Assembly: GCA_965218975.1 (NCBI GenBank)
Contig: OZ244717.1
Coordinates: 234,205 to 298,204, forward strand
Length of the DNA: 64,000 nt
Source of the DNA: Candidatus Oxydemutatoraceae bacterium
GTDB lineage: Bacteria > Pseudomonadota > Gammaproteobacteria > Poriferisulfidales > Oxydemutatoraceae
Reading direction: 5' to 3'
Under the pieces are notes generated by a model, which was not told the origin of the DNA, did not search any database, and saw only the letters and a program-made list of their open reading frames with translations. Numbering within the stretch: position 1 is the first letter of the stretch; each line of letters starts with the position of its first letter. Below, piece by piece: positions 37,462 through 62,288 of this stretch. The position numbers and the translations under genes are program-made.

Positions 37462-37463
37462 TA

Positions 37464-38896: not shown

Positions 38897-38901
38897 CTCA
38901 C

Positions 38902-39864: not shown

Positions 39865-39947
39865 TTATCTTATTTGCCACACAAAAAATGACTTGAGAGA
39901 TAACTCCCCATCCGTTCACTTTACCTTTTTGCTAAGGTTATTTTAGG

Positions 39948-40973
39948 TTATTCCGCTGTTGCAGTGTAGGCGCCGTCCGATGCTGCACCGTTCATCTTTG
40001 CACGCCTCAGTACCGCTGCCTGCGCCACAGAAACATTCGCTGCGGAACCACCCCAAGTTTTCATCGCATGGTGTTGCAATGCGCGACCGTATGAAAAAGT
40101 AATCCGCCACGGCGACTGTCCGCGGTGTTGCCGCGCTAATAAATTAATCGTATTCAGATTAGCAGTGGCATCCTCATCGCTCATTCCGCCCGATAAGAAT
40201 GCAATCCCCGGAACCACTGCGGGCACAACATCTAATAAACAATGTAAAGTCAGCTTCGCGATTTCCTCAGTGCTTGCCTTGTGCGGACATTCGTTTCCTG
40301 AAACGACCATGTTCGGCTTCAACACAATACCGCGCAAATCAACCTTTTGACGCCGCAATTCGTTAAATACGCAAGTTTGTGCCGCCACAGTGGCTTGATA
40401 GCATTGATCAATCGTATGAGCGCCGTCCATCAATACTTCGGGTTCAACAATCGGCACCAATCCGGCCTCCTGACATAGCGATGCATATCGCGCCAATGCG
40501 TGAGCATTGGCGGAAATACAAGCACCCGACGGAATAATCTTGCCAATCGTAATTACCGCCCGCCATTTTGCAAAACGCGCGCCTAAGGCACGGTATTCTT
40601 CAAGCCGTTCACGTAAACCATCCAAGCCCTCAGTGATTTTTTCATTCGGAAATCCGGCAAGTGGTTTCGCGCCTTTATCGACCTTGATGCCCGGAATAAT
40701 TCCGGCGGCGGCAAGCTGTTCGGCAAAAGGGTTTCCATCAAGCGTGGTTTGCCGAATCGTTTCATCAAACAAAATCGCAGCCGAAATATAGCTGCCCAAA
40801 TCGCGAGTCGTTACCAACATACTGCGATAAGCGCATCGGTTTTCTTTGTTCATCGCAATACCTAATTTCTCAAATCGTTTTCGGCAAGTCGGATGACTTT
40901 CATCCATTGCCAAAATACCGCGCCTAGGAGCAACCATTGCCTGCGCGGTTTTATACAAAACCTCCGTATTCAT
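39948..40973 (-). CDS. fba: Fructose-bisphosphate aldolase, class I.
   Basis: GILAMDESHPTCRKRFEKLGI is the hallmark ILAADES-type block of class I FBA. LLKPNMV with the Schiff-base lysine context. 341 aa. Confidence 0.85.
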   Translation of the reverse strand: MNTEVLYKTAQAMVAPRRGILAMDESHPTCRKRFEKLGIAMNKENRCAYRSMLVTTRDLGSYISAAILFDETIRQTTLDGNPFAEQLAAAGIIPGIKVDKGAKPLAGFPNEKITEGLDGLRERLEEYRALGARFAKWRAVITIGKIIPSGACISANAHALARYASLCQEAGLVPIVEPEVLMDGAHTIDQCYQATVAAQTCVFNELRRQKVDLRGIVLKPNMVVSGNECPHKASTEEIAKLTLHCLLDVVPAVVPGIAFLSGGMSDEDATANLNTINLLARQHRGQSPWRITFSYGRALQHHAMKTWGGSAANVSVAQAAVLRRAKMNGAASDGAYTATAE

Positions 40974-41771: not shown

Positions 41772-43196
41772 ATGAATCAATCAGCATTAAACAAACAAAT
41801 AAATAAAGAGCAGATTGATAGTTTGAAAAATGACGCAAAAGCTCTTTCAGCTTTTTTACAAGATCGGAGCGATGGCGCAATTATTTATGTACTAAAAAAG
41901 TTAGGGAGACTAAAGAATGGATATAACAAGCAGCCATTACTAAATCTTTTAAACAATAGTAACGAGACAATCAGGTCGCTTGCAATAAAAAATCTTGCAA
42001 AAATAAGTGATACTTCTTTATTAAACACTTTTATAGAATTTGCTAAACAAGATGAAAGCAGCGAAGTTAGACGGGAGTCCGTTTCCGCTATTGGGAGGTT
42101 AAGAAATGAAAAAACGATTCCGGTGCTGACTCAATTGTTGTCGGATAAAGATCCGAAAGTTGTCATGCAAGCTATAAGGGGATTACTTGTTTTTTCAAAA
42201 AAAAGCCAAGTAAGGGGAGAATTATCAAGATTGCTTGATCATCCGAATGAATTAATCAAAGAAGTTATCAGTAAAGAAATAAATGGGGCAAGCCATAGAT
42301 CGAAAGATAATGGGAAGCATGATGAGTTTCCGGTTTATCTTAAGAATACGATTGTTCACGGTAATGTTGTAGAGATATTAAAACACGTTCCTGATGAGTC
42401 TGTTCATCTCACTTTTACTTCACCACCTTATTATAATGCCAGAAATTATTCAATTTACCAAAGTTACAATGAGTATTTGCAGTTTCTAGAAGAAGTTTTT
42501 AAGGGAATTCATCGGGTTACAAAAGAAGGCAGATTTTTTATACTTAATACATCACCGATCATTATTCCAAGGATAAGCAGATCTCACGCTAGCAAAAGGT
42601 ACCCTATCCCTTATGATATTCATCCGTTATTAATAAAAATGGGATGGGAATTTATTGATGATATTGTGTGGGTAAAACCAGAAGCAAGTGTGAAAAATAG
42701 AAATGCGGGTTTTCTGCAGCACAGGAAGCCATTGGCTTATAAACCAAATGCGATTTCTGAAATGTTAATGGTTTATAGAAAAGAAACGGACAAGTTAATT
42801 GATTGGAATATGCATAAGTATGGTCGGGGTAAAGTTGAGAGGAGTAAGGTTACAGGCAAATATGAAACTACAAATGTTTGGTATATTGACCCGACTTTTG
42901 ATAGGGTCCATAGTGCAGTTTTCCCTTTAGAGTTATGTGATCGTGTTATCAAATATTATTCATTTGTTGATGATTTAATTTTTGACCCGTTTGCAGGGAG
43001 CGGAACTCTTGGCAAAGCAGCCGTTAATTTAAACCGACATTTCTTTTTAACGGAAAAAGACTCAAGATATGTCAGTTATATGAAAGAAGATTTAATTAAG
43101 GGGTATGGCTTATTTAACGGGAGAGACTCGCAACCGAACTTCGTAGATATTAATAGTTTCATAACTTTAATTAAAGAAAAATATGACAATAACTGA
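41772..43196 (+). CDS. Type II DNA methyltransferase (beta-class N4-cytosine/N6-adenine) with an N-terminal HEAT/PBS-lyase repeat domain.
   Basis: Motif IV LTFTSPPYYNARNY precedes motif I IFDPFAGSGTLGKAA. The N-terminal ~170 aa carry repeated HEAT-like units (NETIRSLAIKNLAKI, ESSEVRRESVSAIGRL, SDKDPKVVMQAIRGL). The gene is strongly AT-rich and overlaps the next ORF by 14 nt. Confidence 0.7.
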   Translation: MNQSALNKQINKEQIDSLKNDAKALSAFLQDRSDGAIIYVLKKLGRLKNGYNKQPLLNLLNNSNETIRSLAIKNLAKISDTSLLNTFIEFAKQDESSEVRRESVSAIGRLRNEKTIPVLTQLLSDKDPKVVMQAIRGLLVFSKKSQVRGELSRLLDHPNELIKEVISKEINGASHRSKDNGKHDEFPVYLKNTIVHGNVVEILKHVPDESVHLTFTSPPYYNARNYSIYQSYNEYLQFLEEVFKGIHRVTKEGRFFILNTSPIIIPRISRSHASKRYPIPYDIHPLLIKMGWEFIDDIVWVKPEASVKNRNAGFLQHRKPLAYKPNAISEMLMVYRKETDKLIDWNMHKYGRGKVERSKVTGKYETTNVWYIDPTFDRVHSAVFPLELCDRVIKYYSFVDDLIFDPFAGSGTLGKAAVNLNRHFFLTEKDSRYVSYMKEDLIKGYGLFNGRDSQPNFVDINSFITLIKEKYDNN

Positions 43197-44094
43197 ACAG
43201 ACAGTAAAAAATATAATAAGGAATCTTTTAAAAGGAAAGGATTACAGAATTGAAATTATTACTCTTATTGATACTAGATTTTTACAGTTCGCCATTTATT
43301 TTTTCAAGCTTATAGTTGACGCAAAATTAAAAAGCGAAGATATCACTGTCGATTGGTATAAAAAATCTTTTTTGAATCCGAGTTTGCCGACAAAAGAAAT
43401 CGCCATCAATTCCGGCTTAAATAAAAAGACAATTCATAACATGTTTAATTCCTCGACAAAAGAAATCGTCATTGATGCTTCAAATAAACATTATGATCTT
43501 TTACATAAATCCATTAAAGATTTAGTTGATGCTAAACACGAGATTGAATTAGTTTTAACAATTAAATTTAAAGGAATTAGCGTTGATCTTAATATCAATG
43601 AAAGCTTAATTGTAATAAATGCCTTAGCTGTGAAAAGATCAGAGTTGAGGGGTGGGTTTTGGAGCACTGCCGGGAAAAGAGTTGAAAAACCATTGATGCA
43701 GACACTTTGTAAGCTGTACAGTGTATCCGAAAGAAACTATTTTTTAAAAATAAAAGGAGAAAACACGAAAGATGACTTTGAGAGAGAAGTAGACTTTTAT
43801 TTGGTGGGCGGAAACAACCGACATAAATGCGAAGTAAAATTAATGGGACGAGGAAATCCGGAAAGTGCCGATGCCGTTATAGCAAGGGGGAGTAAGGTTT
43901 TTGTGGCCGATAAATTATCCGATACTAATAAAAAGCAGTTGGATAGTTTAAATGTTGAGTGGGTTGAATTAAGGAGTAGTGGTGGATTTGAGAAATTTGA
44001 TACGGTATTAGAAAATTTGAAAATTCCACATATAAGATCACTCAGTAACATAGATGAAAGATTAGAAGTAGCATTGAAAGAGATTTTTCATTAA
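43183..44094 (+). CDS. Candidate Type II restriction endonuclease, partner of the upstream methyltransferase.
   Basis: 303-aa ORF translationally coupled to the methyltransferase. Composition is AT-rich and foreign. No recognisable family, so the endonuclease assignment is by context only. Confidence 0.4.
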   Translation: MTITEQTVKNIIRNLLKGKDYRIEIITLIDTRFLQFAIYFFKLIVDAKLKSEDITVDWYKKSFLNPSLPTKEIAINSGLNKKTIHNMFNSSTKEIVIDASNKHYDLLHKSIKDLVDAKHEIELVLTIKFKGISVDLNINESLIVINALAVKRSELRGGFWSTAGKRVEKPLMQTLCKLYSVSERNYFLKIKGENTKDDFEREVDFYLVGGNNRHKCEVKLMGRGNPESADAVIARGSKVFVADKLSDTNKKQLDSLNVEWVELRSSGGFEKFDTVLENLKIPHIRSLSNIDERLEVALKEIFH

Positions 44095-44404: not shown

Positions 44405-46420
44405 TCAGTTTCCTCCGGGGCGCGACTTGCTCGGAAGCGGGAACGGAGCTTCGTCCCATTTCAAACCTACGCTACGGTAGGTCCTGTTGACGTCCGCACT
44501 CGCGCCGGATCCGCCACCCTGTCCCGCTTGATAGACCCGGTCGAGATTCAGTAGAACGCCGCCGCTTCGCTCCAGCCCGTACACCGTGGCGCGCTTGCTC
44601 TGCGGCTGTGCGATACGCGCCAGTACCAGCTCGCGCAGGATGCGATTGGCCGCCATACGGCGCGCACCCAACACCTAGTTCCATCCGAGGTGCGAATAAA
44701 TCTGCGCGAACGCCTCGTGCACCCCAAGCGTCAGACGCGTTTCCTCACGGCATTTAGCCAGATCCGCCGATGCCTCTTGCACGGCGCTTTGCCGCGGTCA
44801 TGCAAGGCGCTGAGCCCAGTGCGGCGATAACGCTGGCGCCAGCGGTACAAAGTACTGCGACCGACCTTGAATACGTTCGGGAGTTATAACCTCCCAAAAT
44901 AATAGGGCAGTATATTTCTGTTGAAGCTTAGAATGCTCATGAGCCTCCATTATTGAAGTATACGATGCCACCCTAAATGGGATTTTTGAAGCGCTTCGAG
45001 AGAAGCGTTCGACAGTAACATTCGGGGATCGGTGTTTTCTGTCCGTTGCCGACATGAGGGCGGTGCGGGGTGAGACGCGCCCGGAAAACCAATTGGTTTT
45101 CAGCGGTGAACGACCCGACAAGGACGTCGGGGCTGGGGCTTGTTGACAGAACCCAGTCGCGTCATGGACGACAGGCACTTTACCGACAATCCGGCACAAT
45201 CCGCCGACAATCCGGCACAATCCGCCGACAATTCGCACAATCCACCACCAAACTACAAAATGGTTTCATAACCGGTCATTGAATGCTTCCGTATCGGTAA
45301 ATAGCAGGTCTTCTGCATGATCGATACAATCTTCTTGGACGGTGCGGCTGAAGCGCTTGATGTGCGCGTTCATTTTCGGACACTTGGGATAGGTCAGCCA
45401 CTGCTCAATCACGGGCGATTCCCGGATGAGCCGGGCAAACTGTCCTTGAAACTCACTACCGCCGTCCGTCAAGATATATTTTACCGGTGGCGGTAGCACC
45501 GCCAGGGTCAAGCGCAGAAATGCGGCAGCACTGCGGCTGTTACAGCAGTTGGTTGCCACTGCCGTTGCCATGCGGGTATAGACATCAATGGCCGTTAAGA
45601 CGGTGCGGCGCATCCCGTGCTGATAACGCACAATTGTATCTAGGGCGATGCAATGCTCCGGATACTGTGCTTTGAAGTCTTTCGGCTTGTGTGCCCTGCA
45701 ACGGCGCTTAAACGGTCGTTTTGTTTGTCCTTTGGCATTCGTGCGCTGCGGAACACGGCGCATTTTATCCGGCGCATCCGCGGTCAGGCGCGCAATCGTG
45801 CGGACACTCGGGCAGGGTGAGACGCGCCCGGAAAACCGATCGGTTTTCAGCGGCGAACGACCCGACAAGGACGTCGGGGCTAGGGCTTGTTGACAGAACC
45901 AAGTCTCGTCATGGGTGAGACGCGCCCGGAAAACCAATTGGTTTTCAGCGGCGAACGACCCGACAAGGACGTCGGGGCTGGGGCTTGTTGACAGAACCCA
46001 GTCGCGTCATGGACGACAGGCACTTTGCCGACAATCCGGCACAATCCGCCGACAATCCGGCAACAAGCGCAAAACGGTTTCACACTGAATCGGTTGGCTA
46101 GGTCCGTCGGCGCCTCTTGCGCGGCGCTCTGGTGCGGCCATGCAAGGCGCTGAACCCAATGCGGCGATAGCGCTAGCGCCAACAGCACTAAAGTACTGCG
46201 ACCGACCTTAAATGCGTTCGGGAGTTACAACCCTCCTAAAATAATAGGGCAGCATATTTCTGTTGAAGTTTAGAGCGCTCATGAGCCTCCATTCTTGAAG
46301 CTAAATTGGCTCATATAGAAACCTTTGATGCGGTGGCCGATGTGTTGATATTGCATATCGGTCACCTTTTTGAGTTAAGCCGTGAGTCCCATACGTATCT
46401 GGCACTATACAGTGCCAAGC
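44405..46420 (-). mobile_element. Two abutting degenerate IS481-family copies in minus orientation. The first is a full-length but disrupted copy (44960-46420: left end at 46420, transposase remnants, two REP-unit insertions at 45060-45265 and 45820-46080, 3' inverted repeat at 44960-44990). The second is a 5'-truncated copy (44405-44955) containing the transposase N-terminal HTH region.
   Basis: 3' end: ...HRPHVGNGQKTPIPECYCRTLLSKRFKNPI, then GGTGGCATCGTATAC. Left end: GGCACTGTATAGTGCCAGATACGTATGGGACTCACGG (reverse complement of 46384-46420). HTH-like translation FKVGRSTLYRWRQRY and ARRMAANRILRELVLARIAQP in 44405-44900. Confidence 0.65.
45266..45937 (-). pseudogene. IS481-family transposase integrase-core (rve) remnant, truncated by REP-unit insertions.
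   Basis: LTAIDVYTRMATAVATNCC...ILTDGGSEFQGQFARLI...VQEDCIDHAEDLLFTDTEAFNDRL is the DDE/rve core of IS481-type transposases. The N-terminus reads through repeat sequence. Confidence 0.65.
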
Positions 46421-46557: not shown

Positions 46558-47748
46558 TTATTTTTTACTTGAAGATGTACCGGATAGCTTGTTCAATGCT
46601 TTATCTATTAAGGCTATTGCCTCATCAATGTTTTGATCGGAAGTATTAAATCCAAGACTGAATCTGATTGACGACTCAGCCTCATCACTTGTCAACCCTA
46701 TGGCTTTGAGAACATGAGATGGCTCTTGAGTGCCCGAAGCGCATGCCGAACCGATTGATGCCGCAAGACGTGGTTGCAACACATTCAGGATATCATGTGC
46801 TGTAAACCCCTTGAATCCGATGTTGGCATTGCCCGGGTGTCTGTATTCGACAGGGGGGCCGCACAGCGTCATGGGCCATGACAACGCCAACAGTTTGTCG
46901 ACAAATCGGTCCCGGTGTCTGCACAATTGTTCACGCTTATTCCTTGCTTGATCAGAACATAAGTATTCTGCTGCCGCTCCCATTCCAACGCATAACGGTG
47001 TAGGCAAAGTTCCGGAACGCAGTCCGTTCTGTTGTCCGCCACCGTAGATCAGAGGTTCAATGCTTTCTTGTAAGTCACGACGGATATAGAGCGCGCCAAT
47101 TCCCTTGGGACCATATATTTTATGCCCTGAAAGACTCAACAGGTCGGTATCATTTGCAAAGTTTTGCATATCTATCGCAATAGGCGCCTGAGCGGCATCA
47201 CAATGAAAGATGGCGCCGGATTGTCTGATTAAGCCGGATAAATTCGCGATATCCTGTATGGTTCCTATCTCATTGTTTACCGCCATAATCGAGACGATCA
47301 GCACGTCATCAGTGAGGCTGCGTTCCAAGTCCGGCAGTAAGATGTGTCCGGATTCGTCAACCGGAAGCAATTCGACCTGAAAACCGAGCTGCTCGTTCAA
47401 TACGCGCCCGACGGCGAGCACACTCTTGTGCTCAATTGCGCTAAGAAGGATTTTTTTTCTTGCAGCGCCCTCTGCCGCCGCATGTTTTGCTAACCCTAGC
47501 AAAGCTAAATTGTTGGACTCGGTTGCCCCGGACGTGAACACGATTTCATCGGCATCGGCGGCGATCAAGCGGGCAACTTGCTGCGCCGCTTTTTCCACAG
47601 CGCGAAAACTTTCCCAACCAGGCGCATGATCTGCCGAATGCGGACTGGCATAGGATTCCGAGAAGTACGGACGCATTTCACGCAACACTCTGTCGGAAAC
47701 CGGCGTCGTTGCCTGATAGTCAAAATACAGATATTCTGATGCGTTCAT
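46558..47748 (-). CDS. sspA: Cysteine desulfurase (class V aminotransferase, NifS/IscS-like). Candidate SspA/DndA-type sulfur donor of the adjacent phosphorothioation module.
   Basis: PLP blocks LSLSGHKIYGPKGIGALYIR and TSGATESNNLAL. Active-site loop GSACASG. Start taken at MNASEYLYFDY (47748). Divergent from the DUF4007 gene. Confidence 0.7.
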   Translation of the reverse strand: MNASEYLYFDYQATTPVSDRVLREMRPYFSESYASPHSADHAPGWESFRAVEKAAQQVARLIAADADEIVFTSGATESNNLALLGLAKHAAAEGAARKKILLSAIEHKSVLAVGRVLNEQLGFQVELLPVDESGHILLPDLERSLTDDVLIVSIMAVNNEIGTIQDIANLSGLIRQSGAIFHCDAAQAPIAIDMQNFANDTDLLSLSGHKIYGPKGIGALYIRRDLQESIEPLIYGGGQQNGLRSGTLPTPLCVGMGAAAEYLCSDQARNKREQLCRHRDRFVDKLLALSWPMTLCGPPVEYRHPGNANIGFKGFTAHDILNVLQPRLAASIGSACASGTQEPSHVLKAIGLTSDEAESSIRFSLGFNTSDQNIDEAIALIDKALNKLSGTSSSKK

Positions 47749-47849
47749 CGGTAAGTCTTCAATCTTGAAATATCCTATAATACCAGAGACAGTCTTCAGG
47801 AATATAACCTTGAGACTATAATACATGTTCCGATAACAGGACGACGAAT

Positions 47850-48824
47850 ATGACACGACGCGGCCCCCTATGTAGACAGGATTACAAACCGCACTTTTTA
47901 GGACACGAAACATTTCCCCTGCGCTATGGGTGGCTGAAAAAAGTCTATGACCGTGTGTCCCGCACCGAGAGAAATAAAAACAACAAAGCCCTGTGTTGGG
48001 GTGATAACGCTATTGCCTTGTTTGGTGTCGGTAAAAATATGGTTGCGTCAATGCGCCATTGGTCAATTGCGGCGGGAATAATTGAAGAGCCTTTAGGCGC
48101 AAATAAGGTGATTACAACCAAGATTGGCCGACAACTGTTCGGCAACGGCGGCCTTGATCCTTACTTGGAGCACCAAACATCTCTATGGCTAATCCATTGG
48201 AAGCTGGCAACGGAGTGGAAAAAAAAGACCACTTGGTTTTGGGCTTTCAATCACTACTACGCCGTACAGTTTGAGCAGGATAAGTTTGTCAAAAGACTTG
48301 AGCGCCTGGCAAAACATCTCGGGTGGCCACATGCCGCACATAGGACCATCAAAAATGACGTTGTCTGTTTTATTCGAACCTATACGACTCATCCCCTTGC
48401 CTCAAAAACGGGATGCGATGATTTACTCGGGTCGCCCCTAGCAGAGCTAGGCCTCATAAAGCCGTTCTCTCGAAAGGGTGAGTTCAGATTTGTTCACGGC
48501 CCGAAATCAACCTTGGGCAAAGGCGCTTTTGTTTATGCTCTTCTTGAGTTTTGGTCAAATTTTTCTCCCGCTACTTCAACACTTTCGTTTGAGGCGATTA
48601 CCTACGAGCCCGGGTCGCCGGGACGCGCTTTTCTGCTTGATGAGAACGACGCGGCCGAGAGATTATCTGACATTGACGATATTACCGGCGGTGCGCTGCG
48701 GTGGTCGGAGACGGCAGGATTGAAGCAGGTCGTGCGGAACCCCGGCTTTGCGATAGATTCTGATTATGCTCTTCGGCTCATAAAAAATGATTATGACGAT
48801 TCTGCTTGCATGAAGGCAGCGTAG
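47850..48824 (+). CDS. sspB: DUF4007-like protein; candidate SspB of a single-strand DNA phosphorothioation system.
   Basis: N-terminal GHETFPLRYGWLKKVYD and the overall 324-aa size match my recollection of the DUF4007 family that defines SspB. It is first gene of an overlapping three-gene operon with a large P-loop ATPase and a PAPS-reductase-like protein. An HMM search is needed to confirm. Confidence 0.55.
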   Translation: MTRRGPLCRQDYKPHFLGHETFPLRYGWLKKVYDRVSRTERNKNNKALCWGDNAIALFGVGKNMVASMRHWSIAAGIIEEPLGANKVITTKIGRQLFGNGGLDPYLEHQTSLWLIHWKLATEWKKKTTWFWAFNHYYAVQFEQDKFVKRLERLAKHLGWPHAAHRTIKNDVVCFIRTYTTHPLASKTGCDDLLGSPLAELGLIKPFSRKGEFRFVHGPKSTLGKGAFVYALLEFWSNFSPATSTLSFEAITYEPGSPGRAFLLDENDAAERLSDIDDITGGALRWSETAGLKQVVRNPGFAIDSDYALRLIKNDYDDSACMKAA

Positions 48825-51800
48825 TGGCACTAATTGATCAAATTCATATCGCGCGGCGTTTCCAAAAATCAATCCGCATTGATGCCGATTTCGGCGAACG
48901 CGATGCGCTGCACGGATTTATATGCCCTCGGTCATCGGGGAATACTCTGCTATCCATGGCCCGGCACGTGTCGGAGACCAACCAAGGCGCTTTTACTTGG
49001 ACCGGTCCGTACGGCAGCGGAAAATCTAGTCTTATCGTTGCTTTAAGCGCATTGCTCGGCGGTAATCCGCATTTGCGAGAACAAGCCGCCGCGATTTTTG
49101 GCCGAACGCTTACTAATGCGATACGAGGAATGCTTCCGGCAGGGATGAAGGGTTGGCGGGTAGTGCCGGTGATAGGGAGGCGAGATGACCCTGTTGATGT
49201 TATCGGACGCACCTTAGAGACAACGGGGCTTGTCGCTCGCCGGCCTCGCGGCGGCTGGACCGAAGATCTTCTTATTACCAATTTGATGGAAGGCGCGACA
49301 AACAAGGTTTACGGCGGGTTGATCTTATTCGTTGACGAGATGGGAAAATTCCTTGAGGCGGCCGCACAAGACGAGGTGGATATTTATATTTTCCAGCAAC
49401 TTGCCGAAACCGCCTCGCGAAGCAACGGGCGACTCCTCGTCATTGGTATATTGCACCAGGCGTTTGAAGAATATGCGCACCGCTTGTCTTACGAAATGCG
49501 CGATGAGTGGGCCAAGATACAAGGACGCTTCATTGATCTTCCGGTTAACACGACCGGCGAAGAACAAATTGACCTTATTTCCCGCGCAATCGGAAACAAC
49601 CGCCGTGCCGGTAAACCGAGCGCGCCATCTGTAACCGTGGCACAGTCGGTATATCGCGGTCGCACCGGCGATGCTCGGCAATTAGCCCGGATGCTGGAAA
49701 ATTGCCGGCCGTTGCATCCTGTTGTCGCGTGTTTGCTCGGGCCGATATCGCGCCGGCGCTTTGGCCAAAACCAACGCAGTATATTTGGCTTTCTCAATTC
49801 AGCCGAACCTCACGGTTTTCAGGATTATCTGCGCACCGCAAACGGAAACAGTCGCTACGGGCCCGAAAAGCTTTGGGATTATTTGCAGACAAATCTCGAG
49901 CCGTCCATTCTCGCCTCGCCGGACAGTCATCGATGGGCATTTGCGGCGGAAGCCATAGAGCGCTGTGAGTCTGTCGGGGGAGATATCTTCCATGTCAATT
50001 TATTAAAAACGATCGCGGTTATCGATCTTTTTAAGGAACGATCGGGACTCGTAGCCGGTTTCGATCTGCTTAAATCATGTTTTCCCGGTATCACGGCAAA
50101 ATCTTTAAAGCAAGGTCTAAAACGGCTGGACGATTGGTCGTTGACCGTATTCAAAAAATTTCAGGATGCATACGCCGTATTTGCCGGCAGCGACTTTGAT
50201 ATTGACCGGGCTGTCGGCAAGGCATTGGAGGAAATTGACGAAATTGATTTTGCCGCACTGAAATCGTTGGCGGGGCTTCAGCCGATTCTTGCCAAGCGCC
50301 ACTATTACGAAACCGGAGCAATGCGCTGGTTTGACGTAGATATCACTTCGGCGTGTGATGTTGCGGAATCCGTAGCTCGGTTCGAAACGAAAAACGATGT
50401 GATCGGTCAGTTCCTGTCGGTAATCCCGACAAAAGGAGAAGATGAAGATACGGTTAAAAAATTGTGCCGCGACGCAGCAAAGTCGCACGGTCAATGGGGC
50501 ATCATCGTCGGGTTTTCCGAGTACTCCCGGGCTGTTGTTGCCCTCGCGCGCGAGCTGCTGGCGACGGATAAAGTAAATAACGAATCTCCCGAGTTGGCGG
50601 GCGATACCGTTGCGCGCCGCGAAGTGTCCGCCCGTCTTGCTGAGTTGCAAGCCCTGCTTGAGCGCGAGCTGAATAAGTCTTTTGACCGAGCCGAATGGTA
50701 TCGCAAACATTGCGTTCCCAAGCCGTATCGCCGAGCCGATTTGAATAATCTGGTTTCTAAGCTTGCCGATAAGCGCTTTGATCAGTGCCCCAAGATTCGT
50801 AACGAACTTTTAAATAGACAAAAACCTTCCGGCAGCGCCGCCGGCGCGCGGAATGCCTTGTTACGTTGTATGGTCCGGAACGAGGGCAAGCCTCGCCTCG
50901 GAATAGAGGGCTACCCTGCTGAAGGCGGTTTGTTCGCATCTATACTCGAGACGACAGGCCTGTATTCCGAAGCGCGTGCAGGAAAATGGCATTTTACGGC
51001 ACCACCCCAAGGCAAGACTGACAAGTGCAGGATATTTCCTATGTGGAATGCGGCTGTCCGACACATCAAAAAAAATAATCAGCGTCCCGTGCCGGTATCG
51101 GAACTCTACGACAAGATTTGGTCTCAACCGCCCTACGGGGTCAAGGCGGGATTGGTGCCCGTTTTATCCGTTGCATTTATATTGTCGCAGCGTAACAACG
51201 TAGCGGTATATCGCGAGAGTATTTTTCGTGCCCGTTTTGACGATATTGACATGGAATATATGGTCAAGAACGCTGCGGCCATACAGTTGCGCTGGATGAG
51301 GCTCAACAGTACGTCGCGCCGCTTATTGTCCGATATGACCGAGGTCGTGCGCGACTTGAACAAGAACAACAAACTGCTTCATCCGGAGCCGATTGACGTG
51401 GCGCGCGGTTTGGTTGCAATTTACGAACGATTGCCTCAGTGGGCTAAGCGCACGATGAGGCTCTCGGCAAACGCGATCAGAGTGCGCGATATTTTTAAGC
51501 ACGCATACGACCCTAATAAATTCTTGTTTGACGATATTCCTACATTGTCGGAAGGGAAGAGGACGGGCCCTTCAGGCGCAAAAGCTATTCGGAAAATTGT
51601 TTCCTTGGTAAATGAAGGCTTGCAAGAGCTTGTGCAGGCCTATCCTTTGATGCTCCGTCGTATGCGCGACGTTATGTTGGCAGAATTGCAGGTTCCGAAC
51701 GCATCAAGGCAATCTCTTGCGGAATTAAGAGACCGAGCTACCAATATAAAAGAGTTGGCGGGTGATTTCCGTCTGGATGCTTTTATCGGGAGAATCGCCC

Positions 51801-52225
51801 GATACGACGGCAGCGACGCCGGATTTGAGGGGATTGCCAGTCTTGCAGCGAATAAACCGCCTCGCGACTGGGTTGATCCGGATTTGAACCGCGCCGCAAT
51901 AGAGATTGCGGACATGGCGCAGAAGTTTTTAAGAGCCGAAACTTTTACCCGTATCCGCGGACGGCCTGAGAAACGCCAGGCCATGGCTGTCTTTATCGGC
52001 GTGAAGGGGCGACCCGTGCCTTTGCTGGAAGAGTTTGATGTCATTGACTCCGACCGAGCGGCAATTGATGATCTTATTGAGCATGTCTCTGCCGTGCTTG
52101 AGACGGTTGATACAAATAGCCGGAGTATCGTATTGGCCGCATTGGCCGAACTTGGCGCCCGGTATATGCAAAAGCCGGACCAAGCCAAGCGAAAAAGGAA
52201 GAACGGAAAACCTACCGATGCCTGA
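48806..52225 (+). CDS. sspC: Large P-loop NTPase (1139 aa); candidate SspC.
   Basis: Walker A WTGPYGSGKSSLIVAL. Walker B LILFVDEMGKFLE. The start overlaps the DUF4007 gene and the end overlaps the PP-loop gene. No transmembrane segments. Confidence 0.55.
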   Translation: MHEGSVVALIDQIHIARRFQKSIRIDADFGERDALHGFICPRSSGNTLLSMARHVSETNQGAFTWTGPYGSGKSSLIVALSALLGGNPHLREQAAAIFGRTLTNAIRGMLPAGMKGWRVVPVIGRRDDPVDVIGRTLETTGLVARRPRGGWTEDLLITNLMEGATNKVYGGLILFVDEMGKFLEAAAQDEVDIYIFQQLAETASRSNGRLLVIGILHQAFEEYAHRLSYEMRDEWAKIQGRFIDLPVNTTGEEQIDLISRAIGNNRRAGKPSAPSVTVAQSVYRGRTGDARQLARMLENCRPLHPVVACLLGPISRRRFGQNQRSIFGFLNSAEPHGFQDYLRTANGNSRYGPEKLWDYLQTNLEPSILASPDSHRWAFAAEAIERCESVGGDIFHVNLLKTIAVIDLFKERSGLVAGFDLLKSCFPGITAKSLKQGLKRLDDWSLTVFKKFQDAYAVFAGSDFDIDRAVGKALEEIDEIDFAALKSLAGLQPILAKRHYYETGAMRWFDVDITSACDVAESVARFETKNDVIGQFLSVIPTKGEDEDTVKKLCRDAAKSHGQWGIIVGFSEYSRAVVALARELLATDKVNNESPELAGDTVARREVSARLAELQALLERELNKSFDRAEWYRKHCVPKPYRRADLNNLVSKLADKRFDQCPKIRNELLNRQKPSGSAAGARNALLRCMVRNEGKPRLGIEGYPAEGGLFASILETTGLYSEARAGKWHFTAPPQGKTDKCRIFPMWNAAVRHIKKNNQRPVPVSELYDKIWSQPPYGVKAGLVPVLSVAFILSQRNNVAVYRESIFRARFDDIDMEYMVKNAAAIQLRWMRLNSTSRRLLSDMTEVVRDLNKNNKLLHPEPIDVARGLVAIYERLPQWAKRTMRLSANAIRVRDIFKHAYDPNKFLFDDIPTLSEGKRTGPSGAKAIRKIVSLVNEGLQELVQAYPLMLRRMRDVMLAELQVPNASRQSLAELRDRATNIKELAGDFRLDAFIGRIARYDGSDAGFEGIASLAANKPPRDWVDPDLNRAAIEIADMAQKFLRAETFTRIRGRPEKRQAMAVFIGVKGRPVPLLEEFDVIDSDRAAIDDLIEHVSAVLETVDTNSRSIVLAALAELGARYMQKPDQAKRKRKNGKPTDA

Positions 52226-53048
52226 AAAGCATGTTTTAGGATTATCCGGCGGCAGAGACAGCGCTGCGTTGGCTGTTTACATGCGGCAACATTATCCCGA
52301 GCTTGAGTTGGAATATTTCTTTACCGATACCGGCAAAGAATTACCCGAAGTTTATGAGTATCTAGGACGGTTGGAAGGGTTTCTCGGGCAGCCGATTTTG
52401 CGCCTTAATCCGGATCGCGATTTTGACTTCTGGTTAAAGCAATATGACGGTTTCCTTCCTTCTCCTCAAACGAGATGGTGCACGAGACAATTAAAACTTC
52501 GTCCGTTTGAAGACTGGATTCGACCGATGCTTGAAAACGGAACAAAAGTGTATAGTTACGTCGCTATTCGCGGGGATGAGGCGTATAGAAAAGGGTATTC
52601 TCCTAAATACGAGAATTTGAAAATCAAATTGCCTTTTAAGGAGGCAGGTATAGACAAAGCCGGGGTGCTTGAAATTCTTGACGGTGCCGGGCTCGGCTTG
52701 CCCGAATATTACTCATGGCGGACTAGGAGCGGGTGCACGTTTTGTTTCTTTCAGCAGAAAATTGAGTGGGTGCGGCTGAAGGAGCGGCACCCGGACGCAT
52801 TTGAAGAAGCCAAGGCATACGAGAAAGACGCCGTTAACCACGGTTCCCCTTTCACCTGGAGTCAAGGTGAGTCCTTAGAAGAGCTGTCACAGCCGGAGCG
52901 TATTGACCAGATCAAAGAAGAACATGCGCGACGTCTTCTGCGCTTGAGGGGTAAAGTGCAGAATAATCCTTTGCGTTCCGATAGCGAGCCCTTGGATATT
53001 GACGATTTATACGGCAAGGCAAAAGTTTGCTTGGCATGCCATAAGTAG
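52218..53048 (+). CDS. sspD: PAPS-reductase / PP-loop ATP pyrophosphatase family protein; candidate SspD (DndC-like).
   Basis: PP-loop motif VLGLSGGRDSAALAV immediately after the start at MPEKHV (52218, 8-nt overlap with the previous gene). C-terminal CxxC motif CLACHK. Confidence 0.65.
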   Translation: MPEKHVLGLSGGRDSAALAVYMRQHYPELELEYFFTDTGKELPEVYEYLGRLEGFLGQPILRLNPDRDFDFWLKQYDGFLPSPQTRWCTRQLKLRPFEDWIRPMLENGTKVYSYVAIRGDEAYRKGYSPKYENLKIKLPFKEAGIDKAGVLEILDGAGLGLPEYYSWRTRSGCTFCFFQQKIEWVRLKERHPDAFEEAKAYEKDAVNHGSPFTWSQGESLEELSQPERIDQIKEEHARRLLRLRGKVQNNPLRSDSEPLDIDDLYGKAKVCLACHK

Positions 53049-53191: not shown

Positions 53192-53662
53192 TTAGTGCTT
53201 TCTCAGCATCTTGTCGATTGCCTCCGACAGATTCCAGATCGGTTCCGCACCACCGTCCTTCAGCATCTCCAAAACATGCGGCAGCCCGGCCGCGGCAAGG
53301 CCGTTTGCGAGCGTCATCATCTTTCGCGGTTCTGACACAATATCTACGTTACCTGATTTGCTGATCGCGATTAGCATGAGCGTGTGAATACGCCACGGAT
53401 CGCTGATGAATATCGACCCGTCAACTATCTTTTTTATCTTCTTCCGCGTACTGTGTTTCGCAGTGTCAGCAGGTTTTAAGCCTAGTCGTGCCGCGATGCA
53501 GACGGACAGAAACCAGAGATCAACCATGCGTGGAAACGGGCTTTGGTCTATTACGGTGTCGGCTTCGGCGCTTCGGCAATATCGCGTGAACGCCTCGTGG
53601 AATTCCACTGGCACGTTGATGTCAATGGTTTGAAAAGGATTGAAATATCGGTCTGCCATCAT
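53192..53662 (-). CDS. Hypothetical 156-aa protein; last gene of the four-gene operon convergent with sspBCD.
   Basis: The ORF starts 7 nt after the stop of the SMC-like gene. No recognisable family. Confidence 0.5.
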   Translation of the reverse strand: MMADRYFNPFQTIDINVPVEFHEAFTRYCRSAEADTVIDQSPFPRMVDLWFLSVCIAARLGLKPADTAKHSTRKKIKKIVDGSIFISDPWRIHTLMLIAISKSGNVDIVSEPRKMMTLANGLAAAGLPHVLEMLKDGGAEPIWNLSEAIDKMLRKH

Positions 53663-53668
53663 CGCCTC

Positions 53669-55810
53669 CTATGACGCCACGCCTGGTTCGACTCGCGGGT
53701 CTGGGCGGCGCCGGCAGAGCTGGCATTCGTCCTTGTGATCGCATTCGCAGCGGAGGACCCTGCGTTCTTCAATGCCGGGATCGTTCACGAGCATTTTCGG
53801 GTAGTGTGCGGAGTTCGTCAGGGTAAATACCACTCCGGCGGACTGATCGATAATTTCCTCGCAGCCCGTAATTTCATCGTGTGTCAGGAACAGAATCAGT
53901 TGCGCGCTTTCACGTACGGATGTGTGCAGGACCGAGCGCTTCACAAAGCCACTCGTCATGCCGAGCGGTGTGTCAATCACGTTCGGCGCTTCAACCTCGC
54001 TCACTTTCGTTAGGGCGAGGATGAATGCGAGCGTCAGCGCGCGGCGAGATGCGCCGTTTAGGTCGCGGTCGGGGTTGAGTGTCCTGTCATTCGGGCCGTA
54101 GGCGATGATGTCAAATTCCCGGCTGATCTCAGCGCGCTGGATAATCGCGCCCTGTTTCGGGTCCGCGCCGATCATTTCCAGGAATATGTTGTTCATTAAA
54201 TCGCTGACCTTCCGCAATTCCTTGTTGGTGATTCGCTCATACGCGCTTTGCAGCACCTTCCTGACGTCTTGCGTGACTTCAAGTTCGGCCCGAACCCGCG
54301 CTCCACTTTTCTGTTTGCGCAAGAGGCGGTCGCGCTCGGTTTCTAACTTTATGCGATCGCGGTGCAGCTCGGTGAGCTGGGTTTTGATGGCCGACTGTTC
54401 CGACAGGTAGTGGTCACGCCGGTCATTGAACTGGCGGCGCGCTTTGCGCAGACCCTGGATATCCGTGTTGGGAAGCGAGTCGAGTTGCAATTCCAGCGCA
54501 CGCAACTTCCGACCTTCTTCGTTGCGCAGGGTTCCGAGATCGTCGCGCCGCTCGGCGACTTTCTTGTAGTCCTCAAGCCATCCACTTGACCCGGCGTCAC
54601 CGCTGGTCTGTAAGGGCTTCGCGTAGTACAACAGTTCGGCGACGACCTCCTGGATTTCTTCGGGATGCCGGCTGTCGTTGATCAGCTTCTGAATACGTGC
54701 GCGGCGCTTGTCGCCGCCGGGACCGTCGGGTTCCAACGTTTCGCCGCAGATGCAGATTTCCGCTGAGAGACATCCCTCAAGCACCGGGATCGTTATGTAC
54801 GGGATCTTGCCCTGCTCGCGCAGCTCTTCGAGTTTGTCGAATGCCTGACCGAGCATCGGCGCAAGCAGGTCGGTTGCAACGGACCGGCTGCGAAACAGTG
54901 CTGAGTGTTCCTCGTTCGCCACCTTGACCCGTCTGTCGAGCTGACGGATCATGTTCTTCGCATATTCGAGGTCCTTGCGCAGCTTTTCCTTGTCACCTTT
55001 CTGGAGGGCCGCGTCAATCTCGCGGTCTCTCTTATTGACGTATTCATCGAACGTCCTGAACTGTTGTTTGGCGTCCGCAAGAGCGTCTTCGGATTTCTTG
55101 CAGTCGTTCTCTAGCGTTTCGAGGCGCGAGGCGGTCTTGTTCAGCTCACTGCCGGACCCGAGTTGCTTTGCTTGCTTATTCACTTCCGCCGCCGATTTGC
55201 CCACATGCTTGATCGCGTCGTTGATTACTTCGAGTCCCAGAAGAGAACATATCGCCTGTTCCACGCGGTCGCGTTTGGTGGATAGGATAACATCCGCTTC
55301 GATGAAGCTTAGCGCGCGGTCACCATCTGTGAAAAAGACCTCCCTTAGCTGCGGTGGCAGGTTTTCGTTGATGAACGCTTCTGGGGTGCTCATGGGACTT
55401 GCGCCGGTATCGTTCAGCTGAAGCAGGTCCACGGTCGAGGCGGAACGACGGGCCTGGCTGTCTATATCCTCGAACGCCGAGCGTACGAGGCGATAGTGCC
55501 GGCGGGTTTCGCGCCATTCCTCGCCGACTCGTCGGTGGGTCGTCAGCTCGAATTCAACCACGGCCATGATCGGGACCCGCTTCCCATCGCTCGCGACCCA
55601 GTCAATGGGATGCAGCCGAAATCCCTCGCCCTTGTCGGGCAGCGCCCCGTCGCCGTAAAGTGCCCATTGAAGGCCGTGCAGGATCGTGGTTTTCCCGGAT
55701 TCGTTCGCGGCGCGGATAACGGTTAGTTTTTTGTCGGGGTCGGTGGAGAATTCCAGCTCCAGATCGCGGAGCAGCCGGAAGTTCTTAAATTCGGCGCGGA
55801 GCAGCTTCAT
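53669..55810 (-). CDS. SMC/RecF/DndD-like AAA ATPase with a long central coiled-coil and Cys clusters.
   Basis: N-terminal Walker A IRAANESGKTTILHGLQWALYG. C-terminal signature/D-loop region RRALTLAFILAL...LILFLTHDE. About 400 aa of heptad-rich sequence between them. Central CLSAEICICGETLEPDGPGG and C-terminal CECDHKDECQLC Cys clusters. Start taken at MKLLRAEF (55810), which overlaps the upstream small-ORF stop as ATGA. Confidence 0.65.
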   Translation of the reverse strand: MKLLRAEFKNFRLLRDLELEFSTDPDKKLTVIRAANESGKTTILHGLQWALYGDGALPDKGEGFRLHPIDWVASDGKRVPIMAVVEFELTTHRRVGEEWRETRRHYRLVRSAFEDIDSQARRSASTVDLLQLNDTGASPMSTPEAFINENLPPQLREVFFTDGDRALSFIEADVILSTKRDRVEQAICSLLGLEVINDAIKHVGKSAAEVNKQAKQLGSGSELNKTASRLETLENDCKKSEDALADAKQQFRTFDEYVNKRDREIDAALQKGDKEKLRKDLEYAKNMIRQLDRRVKVANEEHSALFRSRSVATDLLAPMLGQAFDKLEELREQGKIPYITIPVLEGCLSAEICICGETLEPDGPGGDKRRARIQKLINDSRHPEEIQEVVAELLYYAKPLQTSGDAGSSGWLEDYKKVAERRDDLGTLRNEEGRKLRALELQLDSLPNTDIQGLRKARRQFNDRRDHYLSEQSAIKTQLTELHRDRIKLETERDRLLRKQKSGARVRAELEVTQDVRKVLQSAYERITNKELRKVSDLMNNIFLEMIGADPKQGAIIQRAEISREFDIIAYGPNDRTLNPDRDLNGASRRALTLAFILALTKVSEVEAPNVIDTPLGMTSGFVKRSVLHTSVRESAQLILFLTHDEITGCEEIIDQSAGVVFTLTNSAHYPKMLVNDPGIEERRVLRCECDHKDECQLCRRRPDPRVEPGVAS

Positions 55811-56051
55811 GAGTCCGGTTTCTCTGTTCCCGCGTCTTGACCGCGTTGAGACGCGAGGAACCGTGCAGCGGCATTGCACTTGTTGTTTATCTTCTGTTGT
55901 ATGTTTGTCGCTGAGATGCGATGCTCTCGTTCATATTCCCGAATATCGTTAATCACTTTGAAGATCTCTTTCCTATAGCCCTCACACCGTTCCTCTATCC
56001 CGGTGCACTCCTCAAGGATGATCGAGATTATCTTTTTGTCGTTTAGCGGCA
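55807..56051 (-). CDS. Small hypothetical protein (81 aa), translationally coupled between the helicase and the SMC-like gene.
   Basis: Strong RBS GGAGAGGGAGGacaaATG on the minus strand. The TGA stop overlaps the ATG of the next gene. The protein is charged and helical, with no family. Confidence 0.5.
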
Positions 56052-56068
56052 TTTGTCCTCCCTCTCCT

Positions 56069-58237
56069 TTACAAGTACGCGGCGTCAACCATTCTGTCAA
56101 TCGTCGCCAGCGGCCCGTCCGTCCGGCCCGCGTTTTTCGCTAGCCGGGCAAACTCCTGCGCCCGATGCAATTCTGAACGTACAAGGCTACGTGCATCAGG
56201 GTCAAGCTCCTCTTCCATCTTCGGCGGCAAAGCTAGTAAATCGTGAATAATGCTGTGCGTTTTGCCAATATTACTACAAGTGCGTAAAAGGCGTCCGCGC
56301 CGTTGCACCCATTGCCGTTCGACCGTCGTGCTCGCGAGAATGAACGCCTTGCATATCTGCGGGATATTCACTCCTTCGTCGAGCACGCGCTTTGCCGTCA
56401 GCATCTGAATTTCCCCGTCCTGGAAGGACTTGATGATCCGCTTAGTCTGCTCGCGGTTCGCCGTCTCTTCGGCGGTGAGCTGGTGGAATAAGATATTCCG
56501 GTCGCGCAGCAACCGATTCACGTCGTCGAGCTGATCCGGTCCCTTGTCGGAGGTGTAAACGAGCGTGTGCCGCAGGTTGCCGGTATCCTCTTTATCAAGC
56601 AGAGTCCTCAGCATCGAAACCTTGCCGGAGGCGGTTTCCAGCAACGCGCGCCGATCCCGCAAAAGCTTGGCGAGGTACTCGTCCGGCTTATCTCCGTCGC
56701 TGCGCCAAGCATTCCGCTTGATTTTGCCCGTCAGCTCGAACCAGTCGTCCATTTCGGTGTCTGTCAGGGACACGGGATGGACGTAGTAATCGTATTCGAC
56801 AAGACAGCGGCCGATGGCCTCTTCTAGTGCGAAACGGAAAACAATGGGTCCGAAGAATCCGAATAGCGCTTTTGTCCCTTCCTCGTCATACTGACGTATC
56901 GGTGTGGCCGAGAGACCGAGACGATGTTCAAAGAATTCCGGCGGATTCCTGACAAACGAGGCGCGGCCTAGATTGTGAGCTTCATCAGCAATGAGTAGGC
57001 GGTCGCAATCAAACTTCTCAACTGCGACGAGAAATTCTGGAGTGCACAACGTATCGTGACTGACGACGATGACTTCAACATCCGACAGATTGGTACGCAG
57101 TCGCCGTTTCAGTTTTTGCAGCTCGCGCGCACGCTTCGCCGCACCGCCAGCTGTCGTGAGATTGACCGGCTTTATCCCGAACGGAACGATTTCATTGCAC
57201 CACTGTTCAATCAATGGTACATAGGGCGCGGCGACGACGATGAATAGCGGTCTGCGCTCTTCGTAGAGACGGTGTGCGCTGATCATTGAAGTGATTGTCT
57301 TCCCTGAGCCGGTCGCCATTTCCAGAATGCCTCGATACCGGGTCTCGCACCATGCATTGACTGCCTTTCCCTCGTGTTTGAATGGCCCGTCTTCGTATCG
57401 AAGCCAGCTTGGTATTACGAATTCCGTCTTCGGGACCGGAACGGGCTCGTACAATGCGGGCTCTTCCGCAATGCCGGTTGCGCGCACGTAGAGAGCACGC
57501 AGATCATCTTCGGTCGGAGGCGATTCGGAGCCGTAGGTGCGCAAGAGACGCTGTCTGATGGCATCTGGCATCGCGATAACGATACAGTTGTCGTCCTTGT
57601 TTTCCCACAGTCGGCGGAACTCGTAATGAAGCTTATCGGTGATGTAATGTTGATTCGAGTCCTGCCATGACCTTGATATGGTGGTCTGTTCGATGTTCTT
57701 CCGAATGCCTGCAAAGGTTACGTTGCTCGAACCGTGCGCCGCGACGACATCGCTACCGTTCTCGAAGAGCCAAACCTTGGGATGAAAGAGAGCATCTTTC
57801 ATCAGGGCGGTCCTGATTTCGATTCGGTGCTTCCGAACCAGCCACGTAAGGCATTTTAGCGTGTAGCGTTGTAGTAGGTCTTCGGTGACGATCAGCTCTT
57901 CTAGAATCTTGTCGGCGACCTCTTCGGCTGACTTCAACCCGTCCTCAATTGCGGCTTTATCCTCGGCACGGAGCAGGGGACTCACAACAAGCCGGAAACT
58001 ATTTTGCGACCCTGCGATGTAGGTCGCTAGACCCGGGGCAAGCGAAGCTAGTACTTCGCTTGAAAAGAAACCGGTCATGCAATCTACGCTATCCGCTGCC
58101 CGGAATCCCGGAATCAACACTTCCTCGGCAAATGGGTCTGCCGGCAGCATGTAAAGCGGACGGGCCGACCCCAGCGACCGAAGCGTTTGTGTCACCACAG
58201 TCGCAGTTTTGTCCTGTATTGCCGTATCATGCACCAC
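56069..58237 (-). CDS. Fusion of a PLD-family (HKD) nuclease domain and an SF2 DEAD/DEAH-box helicase; a restriction-type effector.
   Basis: HKD motif FHPKVWLFENGSDVVAAHGSSNVT at about aa 150. Helicase motif I LEMATGSGKTITS, motif II LLIADEAHNLG, motif III SATPIRQ, motif VI QWVQRRGRLLR. 722 aa. Confidence 0.7.
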   Translation of the reverse strand: MVHDTAIQDKTATVVTQTLRSLGSARPLYMLPADPFAEEVLIPGFRAADSVDCMTGFFSSEVLASLAPGLATYIAGSQNSFRLVVSPLLRAEDKAAIEDGLKSAEEVADKILEELIVTEDLLQRYTLKCLTWLVRKHRIEIRTALMKDALFHPKVWLFENGSDVVAAHGSSNVTFAGIRKNIEQTTISRSWQDSNQHYITDKLHYEFRRLWENKDDNCIVIAMPDAIRQRLLRTYGSESPPTEDDLRALYVRATGIAEEPALYEPVPVPKTEFVIPSWLRYEDGPFKHEGKAVNAWCETRYRGILEMATGSGKTITSMISAHRLYEERRPLFIVVAAPYVPLIEQWCNEIVPFGIKPVNLTTAGGAAKRARELQKLKRRLRTNLSDVEVIVVSHDTLCTPEFLVAVEKFDCDRLLIADEAHNLGRASFVRNPPEFFEHRLGLSATPIRQYDEEGTKALFGFFGPIVFRFALEEAIGRCLVEYDYYVHPVSLTDTEMDDWFELTGKIKRNAWRSDGDKPDEYLAKLLRDRRALLETASGKVSMLRTLLDKEDTGNLRHTLVYTSDKGPDQLDDVNRLLRDRNILFHQLTAEETANREQTKRIIKSFQDGEIQMLTAKRVLDEGVNIPQICKAFILASTTVERQWVQRRGRLLRTCSNIGKTHSIIHDLLALPPKMEEELDPDARSLVRSELHRAQEFARLAKNAGRTDGPLATIDRMVDAAYL

Positions 58238-60012: not shown

Positions 60013-60058
60013 GCGCAATCGCGGTACTACAATCAATAATTCATAAGGATACTTAAGA

Positions 60059-61135: not shown

Positions 61136-61163
61136 AATTAATCGTTAGTTGAAGGAATGAAGT

Positions 61164-61978: not shown

Positions 61979-61979
61979 C

Positions 61980-62288
61980 ATGTCAGTGTTGCACACCGTC
62001 AATAAGTCCCCTTTTGAGCGCAATACTGCCGCTTCGTGCTTGCGTCTGGCAAAGCTCGGTAGCGCTATTTTGTTTATTGAAGATGGAGTCACTGCCGCAT
62101 TAAAAGAGACCAAGTTTGCGCAAAAAATAATTGTTGCCGATAACCGTTTCAAATTTTATGTGCTTGTTTCGGATTTAATAGCGCGTGGTTTTGATGAAAG
62201 CAATATAATAACGGGAGTAACGGCTGTCGATTATGGCGGTTTTGTTGACTTGGTTGCCGAGTATGACAGTGTTCACGCTTGGCTGTAA
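61980..62288 (+). CDS. dsrH: DsrH.
   Basis: 102 aa. N-terminal MSVLHTVNKSPFERN..L is typical of DsrH/TusB. Position is dsrEFH. Confidence 0.75.
   Translation: MSVLHTVNKSPFERNTAASCLRLAKLGSAILFIEDGVTAALKETKFAQKIIVADNRFKFYVLVSDLIARGFDESNIITGVTAVDYGGFVDLVAEYDSVHAWL

Follow-up and report, generated by a model that had tools for sequence, protein, structure and literature searches.

Does a set of genes for the sulfur modification of the DNA backbone stand by itself in a bacterial genome, or is it one half of a defense system? This question is raised by a stretch of 64,000 nucleotides from Candidatus Oxydemutatoraceae bacterium (positions 234,205 to 298,204 of contig OZ244717.1; called the window in the following), in which an SspABCD module for DNA phosphorothioation at 46558-53048 is followed, on the opposite strand, by a four-gene operon, pbeABCD (53192-58237). 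We consider it probable that the region from 46.5 to 58.2 kb encodes a two-module defense system based on phosphorothioate (PT), in which Ssp would place the mark and Pbe would act as the effector. All eight genes are identified and intact, and the physical linkage of the two modules recurs in other genomes. With somewhat less assurance, we also lean towards the wider proposal that SspABCD-PbeABCD is a distinct and widespread third type of Ssp-based defense, after SspE and SspFGH, in which a DndD/DndE-like scanning pair and an HKD-helicase would read single-strand PT marks.

Identity and intactness of the ssp module

The original prediction for this locus had described three overlapping genes, for a DUF4007-like protein, a Walker A/B NTPase and a PP-loop protein, together with a divergently transcribed cysteine desulfurase, and had taken them for SspBCD plus SspA. 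Profile searches with Pfam, PADLOC and NCBIfam models on the open reading frames (ORFs) of the window, on which our gene assignments are based, bear this out. The four ORFs are in place, the motifs GPYGSGKSS, LILFVDEMG and SGGRDS are present, and 46558-53048 is a complete and intact SspABCD module, with sspA divergent and sspB, sspC and sspD overlapping on the plus strand.

The sspB gene (47850-48824, plus strand) encodes a DUF4007 protein of 324 amino acids that matches the Pfam DUF4007 profile at 3.3e-80 over 275 of 288 positions, as had been called for by the prediction, and PADLOC SspB at 9.5e-101. It is followed by sspC (48806-52225, plus strand), the product of which is a BrxC-like P-loop ATPase of 1133-1139 amino acids with 1318 bits against PADLOC SspC, covering positions 1-1044 of the 1045 in the profile, and with intact Walker A (GPYGSGKS) and Walker B (LILFVDE) motifs. 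The GTG at 48824, which gives a 1-nt overlap with the sspB stop, is more likely to be its start than the TTG at 48806. That this ATPase is unusually large, as had been stated, does not hold: the PADLOC SspC profiles that match best have 1045-1104 positions, and the median length in 48 homologues is 1131 amino acids. The third gene, sspD (52218-53048, plus strand, within a long ORF at 52035-53048), encodes a PP-loop sulfurtransferase of 276 amino acids that resembles phosphoadenosine phosphosulfate (PAPS) reductases and matches PADLOC SspD at 4.2e-136 (451 bits). It carries the PP-loop motif SGGRDS and five cysteines at positions 88, 173, 176, 271 and 274, and most likely starts at the ATG at 52218, with an 8-nt overlap with the sspC stop.

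The divergent gene, sspA (46558-47748, minus strand), encodes a dedicated cysteine desulfurase of 396 amino acids (Aminotran_5 2.8e-79; PADLOC SspA 4.3e-127), in which the lysine that binds pyridoxal phosphate (K210 in SGHK) and the catalytic cysteine (C336 in GSAC) are intact; it thus is a class V cysteine desulfurase linked to sspBCD. Its start most likely corresponds to Met56 of the long ORF 46558-47913, which yields the length of 396 amino acids that is also found in the homologues, and sspA therefore does not overlap sspB. The two genes are separated by an AT-rich intergenic region (47749-47849) that presumably holds the promoters and in which two TATAAT-like hexamers can be read from the sequence. 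A consensus scan for promoters and terminators left both hexamers uncalled, and its promoter calls were no better than those on shuffled sequences.

Since dsrAB is found at a distance of about 500 bp, one could suspect that these genes belong to housekeeping sulfur metabolism, i.e., an IscS/NifS-type desulfurase and a CysH-type PAPS reductase beside a dsr operon. The desulfurase does have IscS-like similarity (1e-108), and the PP-loop protein has a weak match to Pfam PAPS_reduct (6e-5). However, the desulfurase falls below the NCBIfam cut-offs for IscS, NifS, SufS and DndA (for IscS, 364 bits against a cut-off of 643) and yet matches PADLOC SspA, no NCBIfam CysH model matched SspD, sspD is translationally coupled to the DUF4007 and SspC genes, and the whole set travels between phyla as a cassette. 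We therefore give the housekeeping explanation hardly any credence, in agreement with the original prediction, which had kept this gene set apart from housekeeping Fe-S machinery and had proposed comparing the PP-loop protein with CysH and DndC. In that comparison it groups with SspD; DndC reaches only about 20 bits (1.5e-5) against a cut-off of 290, and the modification core is not of the DndABCDE type.

Another reading that has to be considered is BREX (bacteriophage exclusion) type 4, with which the locus has DUF4007, a BrxC-like ATPase and a PAPS-reductase protein (BrxP in BREX) in common; the homology between these proteins has been described (PMC12839542). Indeed, SspC matches PADLOC BrxC at 1e-111 and SspD matches BrxP at 2.5e-11, but these matches are far below those to the Ssp models (372 bits against 1318 for SspC, 40 against 451 for SspD). 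Furthermore, type 4 systems have PglZ in 100% and BrxL in 96% of cases (PMC12839542), but neither was found in any ORF of the window. An assignment to BREX type 4 thus is very improbable. By itself, the ssp module is an ordinary, additional member of a known family.

The convergent pbeABCD operon

What sets this locus apart begins 144 bp past the sspD stop, where the minus-strand pbeABCD operon converges on sspD. Its first gene, pbeA (56069-58237, minus strand), encodes an HKD nuclease of the phospholipase D (PLD) family fused to a superfamily 2 (SF2) helicase, with a PADLOC PbeA match of 1e-190. The protein has about 700-722 amino acids, its 5′ end being uncertain by about 25-30 codons. Pfam finds ResIII, DEAD and Helicase_C as well as a weak PLDc_2 match (1.3e-4); the HKD motif (HPK...GSSN), which is followed by GSGKT and DEAH, is kept in all full-length homologues. 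The small gene pbeB (55807-56052, minus strand, 81 amino acids) has a stop that overlaps the ATG of pbeC in ATGA. PbeB had no PADLOC match and is assigned by position and size; in a tblastn comparison, its counterparts in relatives reach 62-75% identity, and the gene was called in nine of nine sampled loci with PbeD (81 amino acids in eight, 79 in the locus L056).

The third gene, pbeC (53669-55810, minus strand), encodes an ABC (ATP-binding cassette) ATPase of the CxC type with 713 amino acids, a paralogue of DndD (PADLOC PbeC 1.1e-53, DndD 3.7e-29; Pfam AAA_23 1.5e-16). Its Walker A motif reads NESGKTT, and a CICG zinc-hook motif is found in the middle of the protein (residues 353-355 of 713). 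The CxC zinc hook is the defining trait of the CxC ABC ATPase clade (PMC10853773), and the motif is kept in 11 of 11 homologues. The protein also has a C-terminal CxC..CxxC cysteine cluster (residues 688-699; window 53669-53760) that is kept in 9 of the 11 and could possibly form a second zinc site besides the hook.

The last gene, pbeD (53192-53662, minus strand), encodes a protein of 155-156 amino acids for which searches of Pfam, PADLOC and PDB profiles gave no meaningful match by sequence, such that fold comparison alone was informative. It identifies PbeD, with moderate confidence, as a predicted DndE-fold protein and cognate of DndE.

The gene order and sizes in the window (pbeA, a small ORF, pbeC and an ORF of about 150 amino acids) match the published PbeABCD, which consists of a helicase, a 66-amino-acid protein, an ATPase and a 152-amino-acid protein (PMC6459918) and has since been reinterpreted as an HKD-SF2 helicase, a small protein, a CxC ABC ATPase and a DndE cognate (PMC10853773). 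This also qualifies two statements of the original prediction. The absence of DndD and DndE is correct within 46558-53048, but a DndD-paralogous CxC ABC ATPase and a DndE-fold protein are encoded from 144 bp downstream; among the ORFs of at least 100 amino acids in the window as a whole, no DndB-E modification genes were found, and the DndD-like and DndE-like genes that are present are of the CxC/Pbe type. Likewise, the modification module was correctly recognized, but the account was incomplete, because the adjacent convergent effector operon had been overlooked. Given this operon, the locus is likely a complete defense system.

Recurrence of the linkage and a possible mechanism

Whether the two modules belong together was approached from both sides. 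For the Ssp side, a scan for SspC, restricted to one genome per species, gave 48 loci with 37-72% identity from many phyla, many of them marine or sponge-associated metagenome-assembled genomes (MAGs). Flanking ORFs were clustered, representatives were annotated, and partners were counted within 10 kb. The divergent arrangement of sspA and sspBCD is kept in 45 of these loci. PbeA, PbeC and PbeD homologues lie near ssp in nine of the 48, to which one locus truncated by a contig end and two with distant versions can be added; altogether, about 11 of the 48 are counted as having Pbe at most 10 kb from ssp. SspFGH is found in about ten and SspE in seven. By their identity to the window, the Pbe modules that neighbor ssp form at least three divergence classes (68-76%, 28-48% and 20-36%), and they occur upstream, downstream, convergent and co-directional, which indicates that the pairing has arisen repeatedly and independently.

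For the Pbe side, more than 1192 PbeD homologues were available, and nine of them, from metagenomes, were picked by the length of their contig or their place in the list, blind to their gene context. All nine belong to a set of pbeA, a small gene, pbeC and pbeD that adjoins sspD-sspC-sspB. Two loci, L056 (a MAG of the Bacillota) and L058, share 67-79% identity with the window in their Pbe proteins, but no more than 26-50% in the Ssp proteins next to them. Hence, judged by these identities, one Pbe lineage is coupled to two very different Ssp lineages, and the association outlives the replacement of one of its modules. Finally, on the plasmid CP099618.1 of a cultured Sphingomonadaceae isolate (L062, 102139-124178), sspA-B-C-D-pbeA-B-C-D form one co-directional operon, with an ATGA in which the stop codon of sspD overlaps the start codon of pbeA; the GenBank record names these eight genes only generically. 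Taken together, the linkage seen from both sides, the module replacement and the single operon favor a functional unit over chance clustering in defense islands.

The main alternative is that the two are independent neighbors, with SspABCD as a solitary ("orphan") PT modification that has an epigenetic or redox role and pbeABCD as an independent defense system that happens to share the island. There is precedent for both halves of this view. It has been reported that 84% of sspBCD modules have no known partner (PMC8092258), and CxC/Pbe systems without PT genes exist (PMC10853773): 58% of 553 PbeAC pairs lack dndCD, and 165 of them, termed solitary, have no modification gene nearby (PMC6459918). 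Furthermore, the island in the window also holds an unrelated type II restriction-modification (RM) system and remnants of insertion sequences (IS), and the Ssp and Pbe phylogenies are discordant. However, neighbors without a functional relationship are difficult to reconcile with the adjacency of sspBCD to nine of nine PbeD homologues, with several independent Pbe lineages next to ssp, with the same Pbe lineage beside two very different Ssp lineages and with the overlapping sspD and pbeA codons in the eight-gene operon of CP099618.1. We therefore regard the independence of the two modules as unlikely.

Several observations nevertheless weigh against Ssp and Pbe acting as one system. The two operons of the window converge and are not co-transcribed, and relatives often carry unrelated accessory genes between them. 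The closest SspC relatives of the window (L018, L001-L003) have no Pbe, and this discordance of the Ssp and Pbe similarities fits modular shuffling, but also plain defense-island clustering. The predicted model of PbeD has a pLDDT (predicted local distance difference test) of 70, i.e., moderate confidence only. With respect to function, the known partner of Pbe, Dnd, makes double-strand PT; the reading of a single-strand Ssp mark by Pbe is putative. CxC/Pbe systems may act alone or with methylases, and their role in PT-dependent restriction has been questioned (PMC10853773). Moreover, the coupling of Ssp and Pbe at this locus is proposed from sequence.

If the two modules do form one system, a mechanism can be proposed by analogy. 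In the studied Ssp systems, SspA mobilizes the sulfur of cysteine, SspD is the final sulfur donor and SspC is an ATPase, and the product is single-strand PT at CpsCA (PMC9646914, PMC12707154, PMC10853773); SspB nicks one strand and recognizes its site via winged-helix (wHTH) domains (PMC9646914, PMC10853773). By extension, SspA of the window would take sulfur off cysteine as a persulfide, and the PP-loop enzyme SspD would use ATP to place it on the backbone phosphate. SspB, with its DUF4007 and winged-helix regions, would pick the target strand and nick it, and the BrxC-like ATPase SspC would power movement along the DNA with ATP. One would expect this to yield a single-strand PT within a short, asymmetric motif, which would serve as the mark of the host.

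For Pbe, the single experimental study expressed the genes of Haloterrigena jeotgali in a heterologous host, Natrinema sp. CJ7-F, where protection requires PT made by DndCDEA and is gone without the PT genes. All four pbe genes are needed for full protection, the loss of pbeA leaving weak residual resistance; the loss of the PT genes is not toxic, and PT-modified virus escapes Pbe (PMC6459918). A published prediction assigns the scanning of DNA to PbeC and PbeD, its cleavage to PbeA and negative regulation to PbeB (PMC10853773). Accordingly modeled, PbeC (the CxC ABC ATPase) and PbeD (with the DndE fold) of the window would scan DNA and read its PT status, with the small protein PbeB as a regulator, and the HKD-nuclease/SF2-helicase PbeA would translocate on unmarked invader DNA and either damage it or block its replication. 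PT formation at this locus, the motif used, the dependence of Pbe on the Ssp mark and the reading of a hemi-modified site are all steps that we infer.

Two further observations concern individual loci. In L056 (L056:1-4554), one gene product of 1520 amino acids, encoded directly upstream of sspD and pbeABCD, covers both the DUF4007 protein and the SspC-like ATPase; this could be a fusion or a gene-calling artifact. As for the window, its PbeD has a 100% identical copy on a public contig of 2.08 Mb, while the DsrA of the window reaches at most 87% in the same database; this mismatch could stem from an indexing gap or from a very recent transfer of the island.

The relatives also harbor other modules beside ssp. 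A pair consisting of a HATPase_c/HATPase_c_3 protein of 790 amino acids and a 633-amino-acid protein with no family match lies directly beside sspD or pbeD in L001, L003, L005, L011, L012, L025, L027, L036, L051, L057 and L058 (e.g., L012:17263-21533). The window lacks this pair, which may be an undescribed Ssp-associated effector. In eight of the 48 loci (L015, L016, L018, L024, L025, L030, L038, L047; e.g., L025:14248-17698), a set of three genes is found beside sspABCD, which encode a short PbeA-like SF2 helicase of about 545 amino acids with no HKD domain, a HATPase_c_3 protein of 615 amino acids with a weak MzaB match and a PLD/DrmC-like protein of 307 amino acids. This set resembles a split version of the helicase-nuclease effector that does without the CxC ATPase and DndE pair. 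Other inserts adjacent to sspD hold a DndB-like protein (420 amino acids) together with either a 173-amino-acid protein or GIY-YIG and SNF2 partners, or a GmrSD_N (DUF262) protein together with a Ser/Thr kinase. The loci listed for the DndB-like and GmrSD_N inserts are L006, L009, L015, L018, L019, L021-L023, L037, L039, L044 and L060, and L004, L031, L038, L048, L059 and L061. None of these recurring neighbors of sspD has been described as a partner of Ssp, and the space that separates the ssp operon from the pbe operon resembles a hotspot or docking site for further, putative accessory effectors.

The surrounding island and comparison with known systems

In the window, the ssp and pbe genes lie within a roughly 16.5-kb island (41.7-58.3 kb) that also contains a type II RM pair and degraded transposase ORFs. 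The RM pair (41772-44094) consists of an N4/N6 DNA methylase of 474 amino acids with an N-terminal HEAT-repeat region and, overlapping it, a CfrBI-like endonuclease of 303 amino acids. Its GC content is 34%, the neighboring DNA having about 47-50%, and this suggests that the pair was acquired separately and recently. The RM system was considered as the modification partner of Pbe and rejected, because it is 9 kb away beyond the IS remnants, has this low GC content and occurs in none of the related Ssp-Pbe loci. The stretch from the RM pair to sspA (44405-46188) holds several short ORFs on the minus strand that resemble degraded remnants of IS or transposases; one of them weakly matches an integrase core (rve). 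No tRNA was found at the island border.

On one side, the island is flanked by an operon of BatA-D, MoxR and DUF58 genes with a class I aldolase (33132-40973), on the other by a reverse-type dsr operon (58750-63466) that comprises dsrAB-EFH, including DsrE-family genes, and a dsrM-like gene. DsrA is 85-87% identical to proteins from MAGs of the Ca. Oxydemutatoraceae and Ca. Porisulfidus type, and these relatives make it probable that the host is a sulfur-oxidizing gammaproteobacterium with reverse Dsr (rDsr) that is marine or associated with sponges. Elsewhere in the window (1-41000), PADLOC gave single matches to candidate-defense models, namely PDC-M72A (2e-40), mad3 (2e-31) and AriA/PtuA-like ATPases.

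If the coupling of Ssp and Pbe is real, the restriction partners of Ssp modification would increase to three classes. The Pbe/CxC-DndE effector would then not be bound to double-strand PT of the Dnd type and would have to read hemi-modified sites. Many database loci now classed as "orphan" ssp or "solitary" pbe would be single systems, which would fill part of two gaps, that of the partnerless majority of sspBCD modules (PMC8092258) and that of the PbeAC pairs without dndCD (PMC6459918). Furthermore, the eight-gene operon of CP099618.1 would be a ready experimental model for the dispute on whether Pbe is a PT-dependent restriction module (PMC6459918 versus PMC10853773).

How, then, does the locus compare with what has been described? 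SspABCD-SspE, found in Vibrio cyclitrophicus FF75 and E. coli 3234/A (Xiong et al. 2020, cited in PMC9646914), has the same four modification families and a similarly tight packing of sspBCD. It is completed by SspE, a DUF262-DUF1524 GTPase and HNH nickase, whereas the window has the four-gene Pbe module instead. SspABCD-SspFGH from Vibrio anguillarum FF-93 (PMC8092258) resembles the window in that Ssp is joined by an effector of several genes, with an ATPase and a DNA translocase among its proteins, and, like Pbe, SspFGH is a partner whose occurrence is patchy across the Ssp tree. However, SspF, SspG and SspH are unrelated to PbeA-D, and while ten related loci have matches to them, the window has none. 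In fact, no PADLOC match to SspE, SspF, SspG, SspH, PglZ or BrxL was obtained for the window ORFs of at least 100 amino acids, although the same models do detect SspE and SspFGH proteins in related loci; on this profile evidence, an SspE or SspFGH partner for the ssp genes of the window was rejected. BREX type 4 (PMC12839542, PMC12914056) shares homologous proteins with the locus (BrxC and SspC, BrxP and SspD, and DUF4007) and also has PT as its output, but it has PglZ and BrxL, which the window lacks, and the profiles favor Ssp by a wide margin.

A pairing of Ssp with Pbe was not found in the literature searched, though an earlier mention in Xiong et al. 2020 (Nat Microbiol) or Krishnan et al. 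2020 (NAR) is possible; the only partners given for Pbe in published work are Dnd and methylases. The closest known counterpart of the effector is DndCDEA-PbeABCD of Haloterrigena jeotgali A29 (PMC6459918), which corresponds to the CxC ABC ATPase-DndE system of PMC10853773. It has the same effector architecture and gene order as the window and likewise lies next to PT genes, but its modification partner is DndCDEA, which makes double-strand PT, whereas that of the window is Ssp, with single-strand PT and SspB/SspC chemistry. Thus, the locus represents a known modification module in a probably new configuration of defense, in which Ssp is combined with Pbe.

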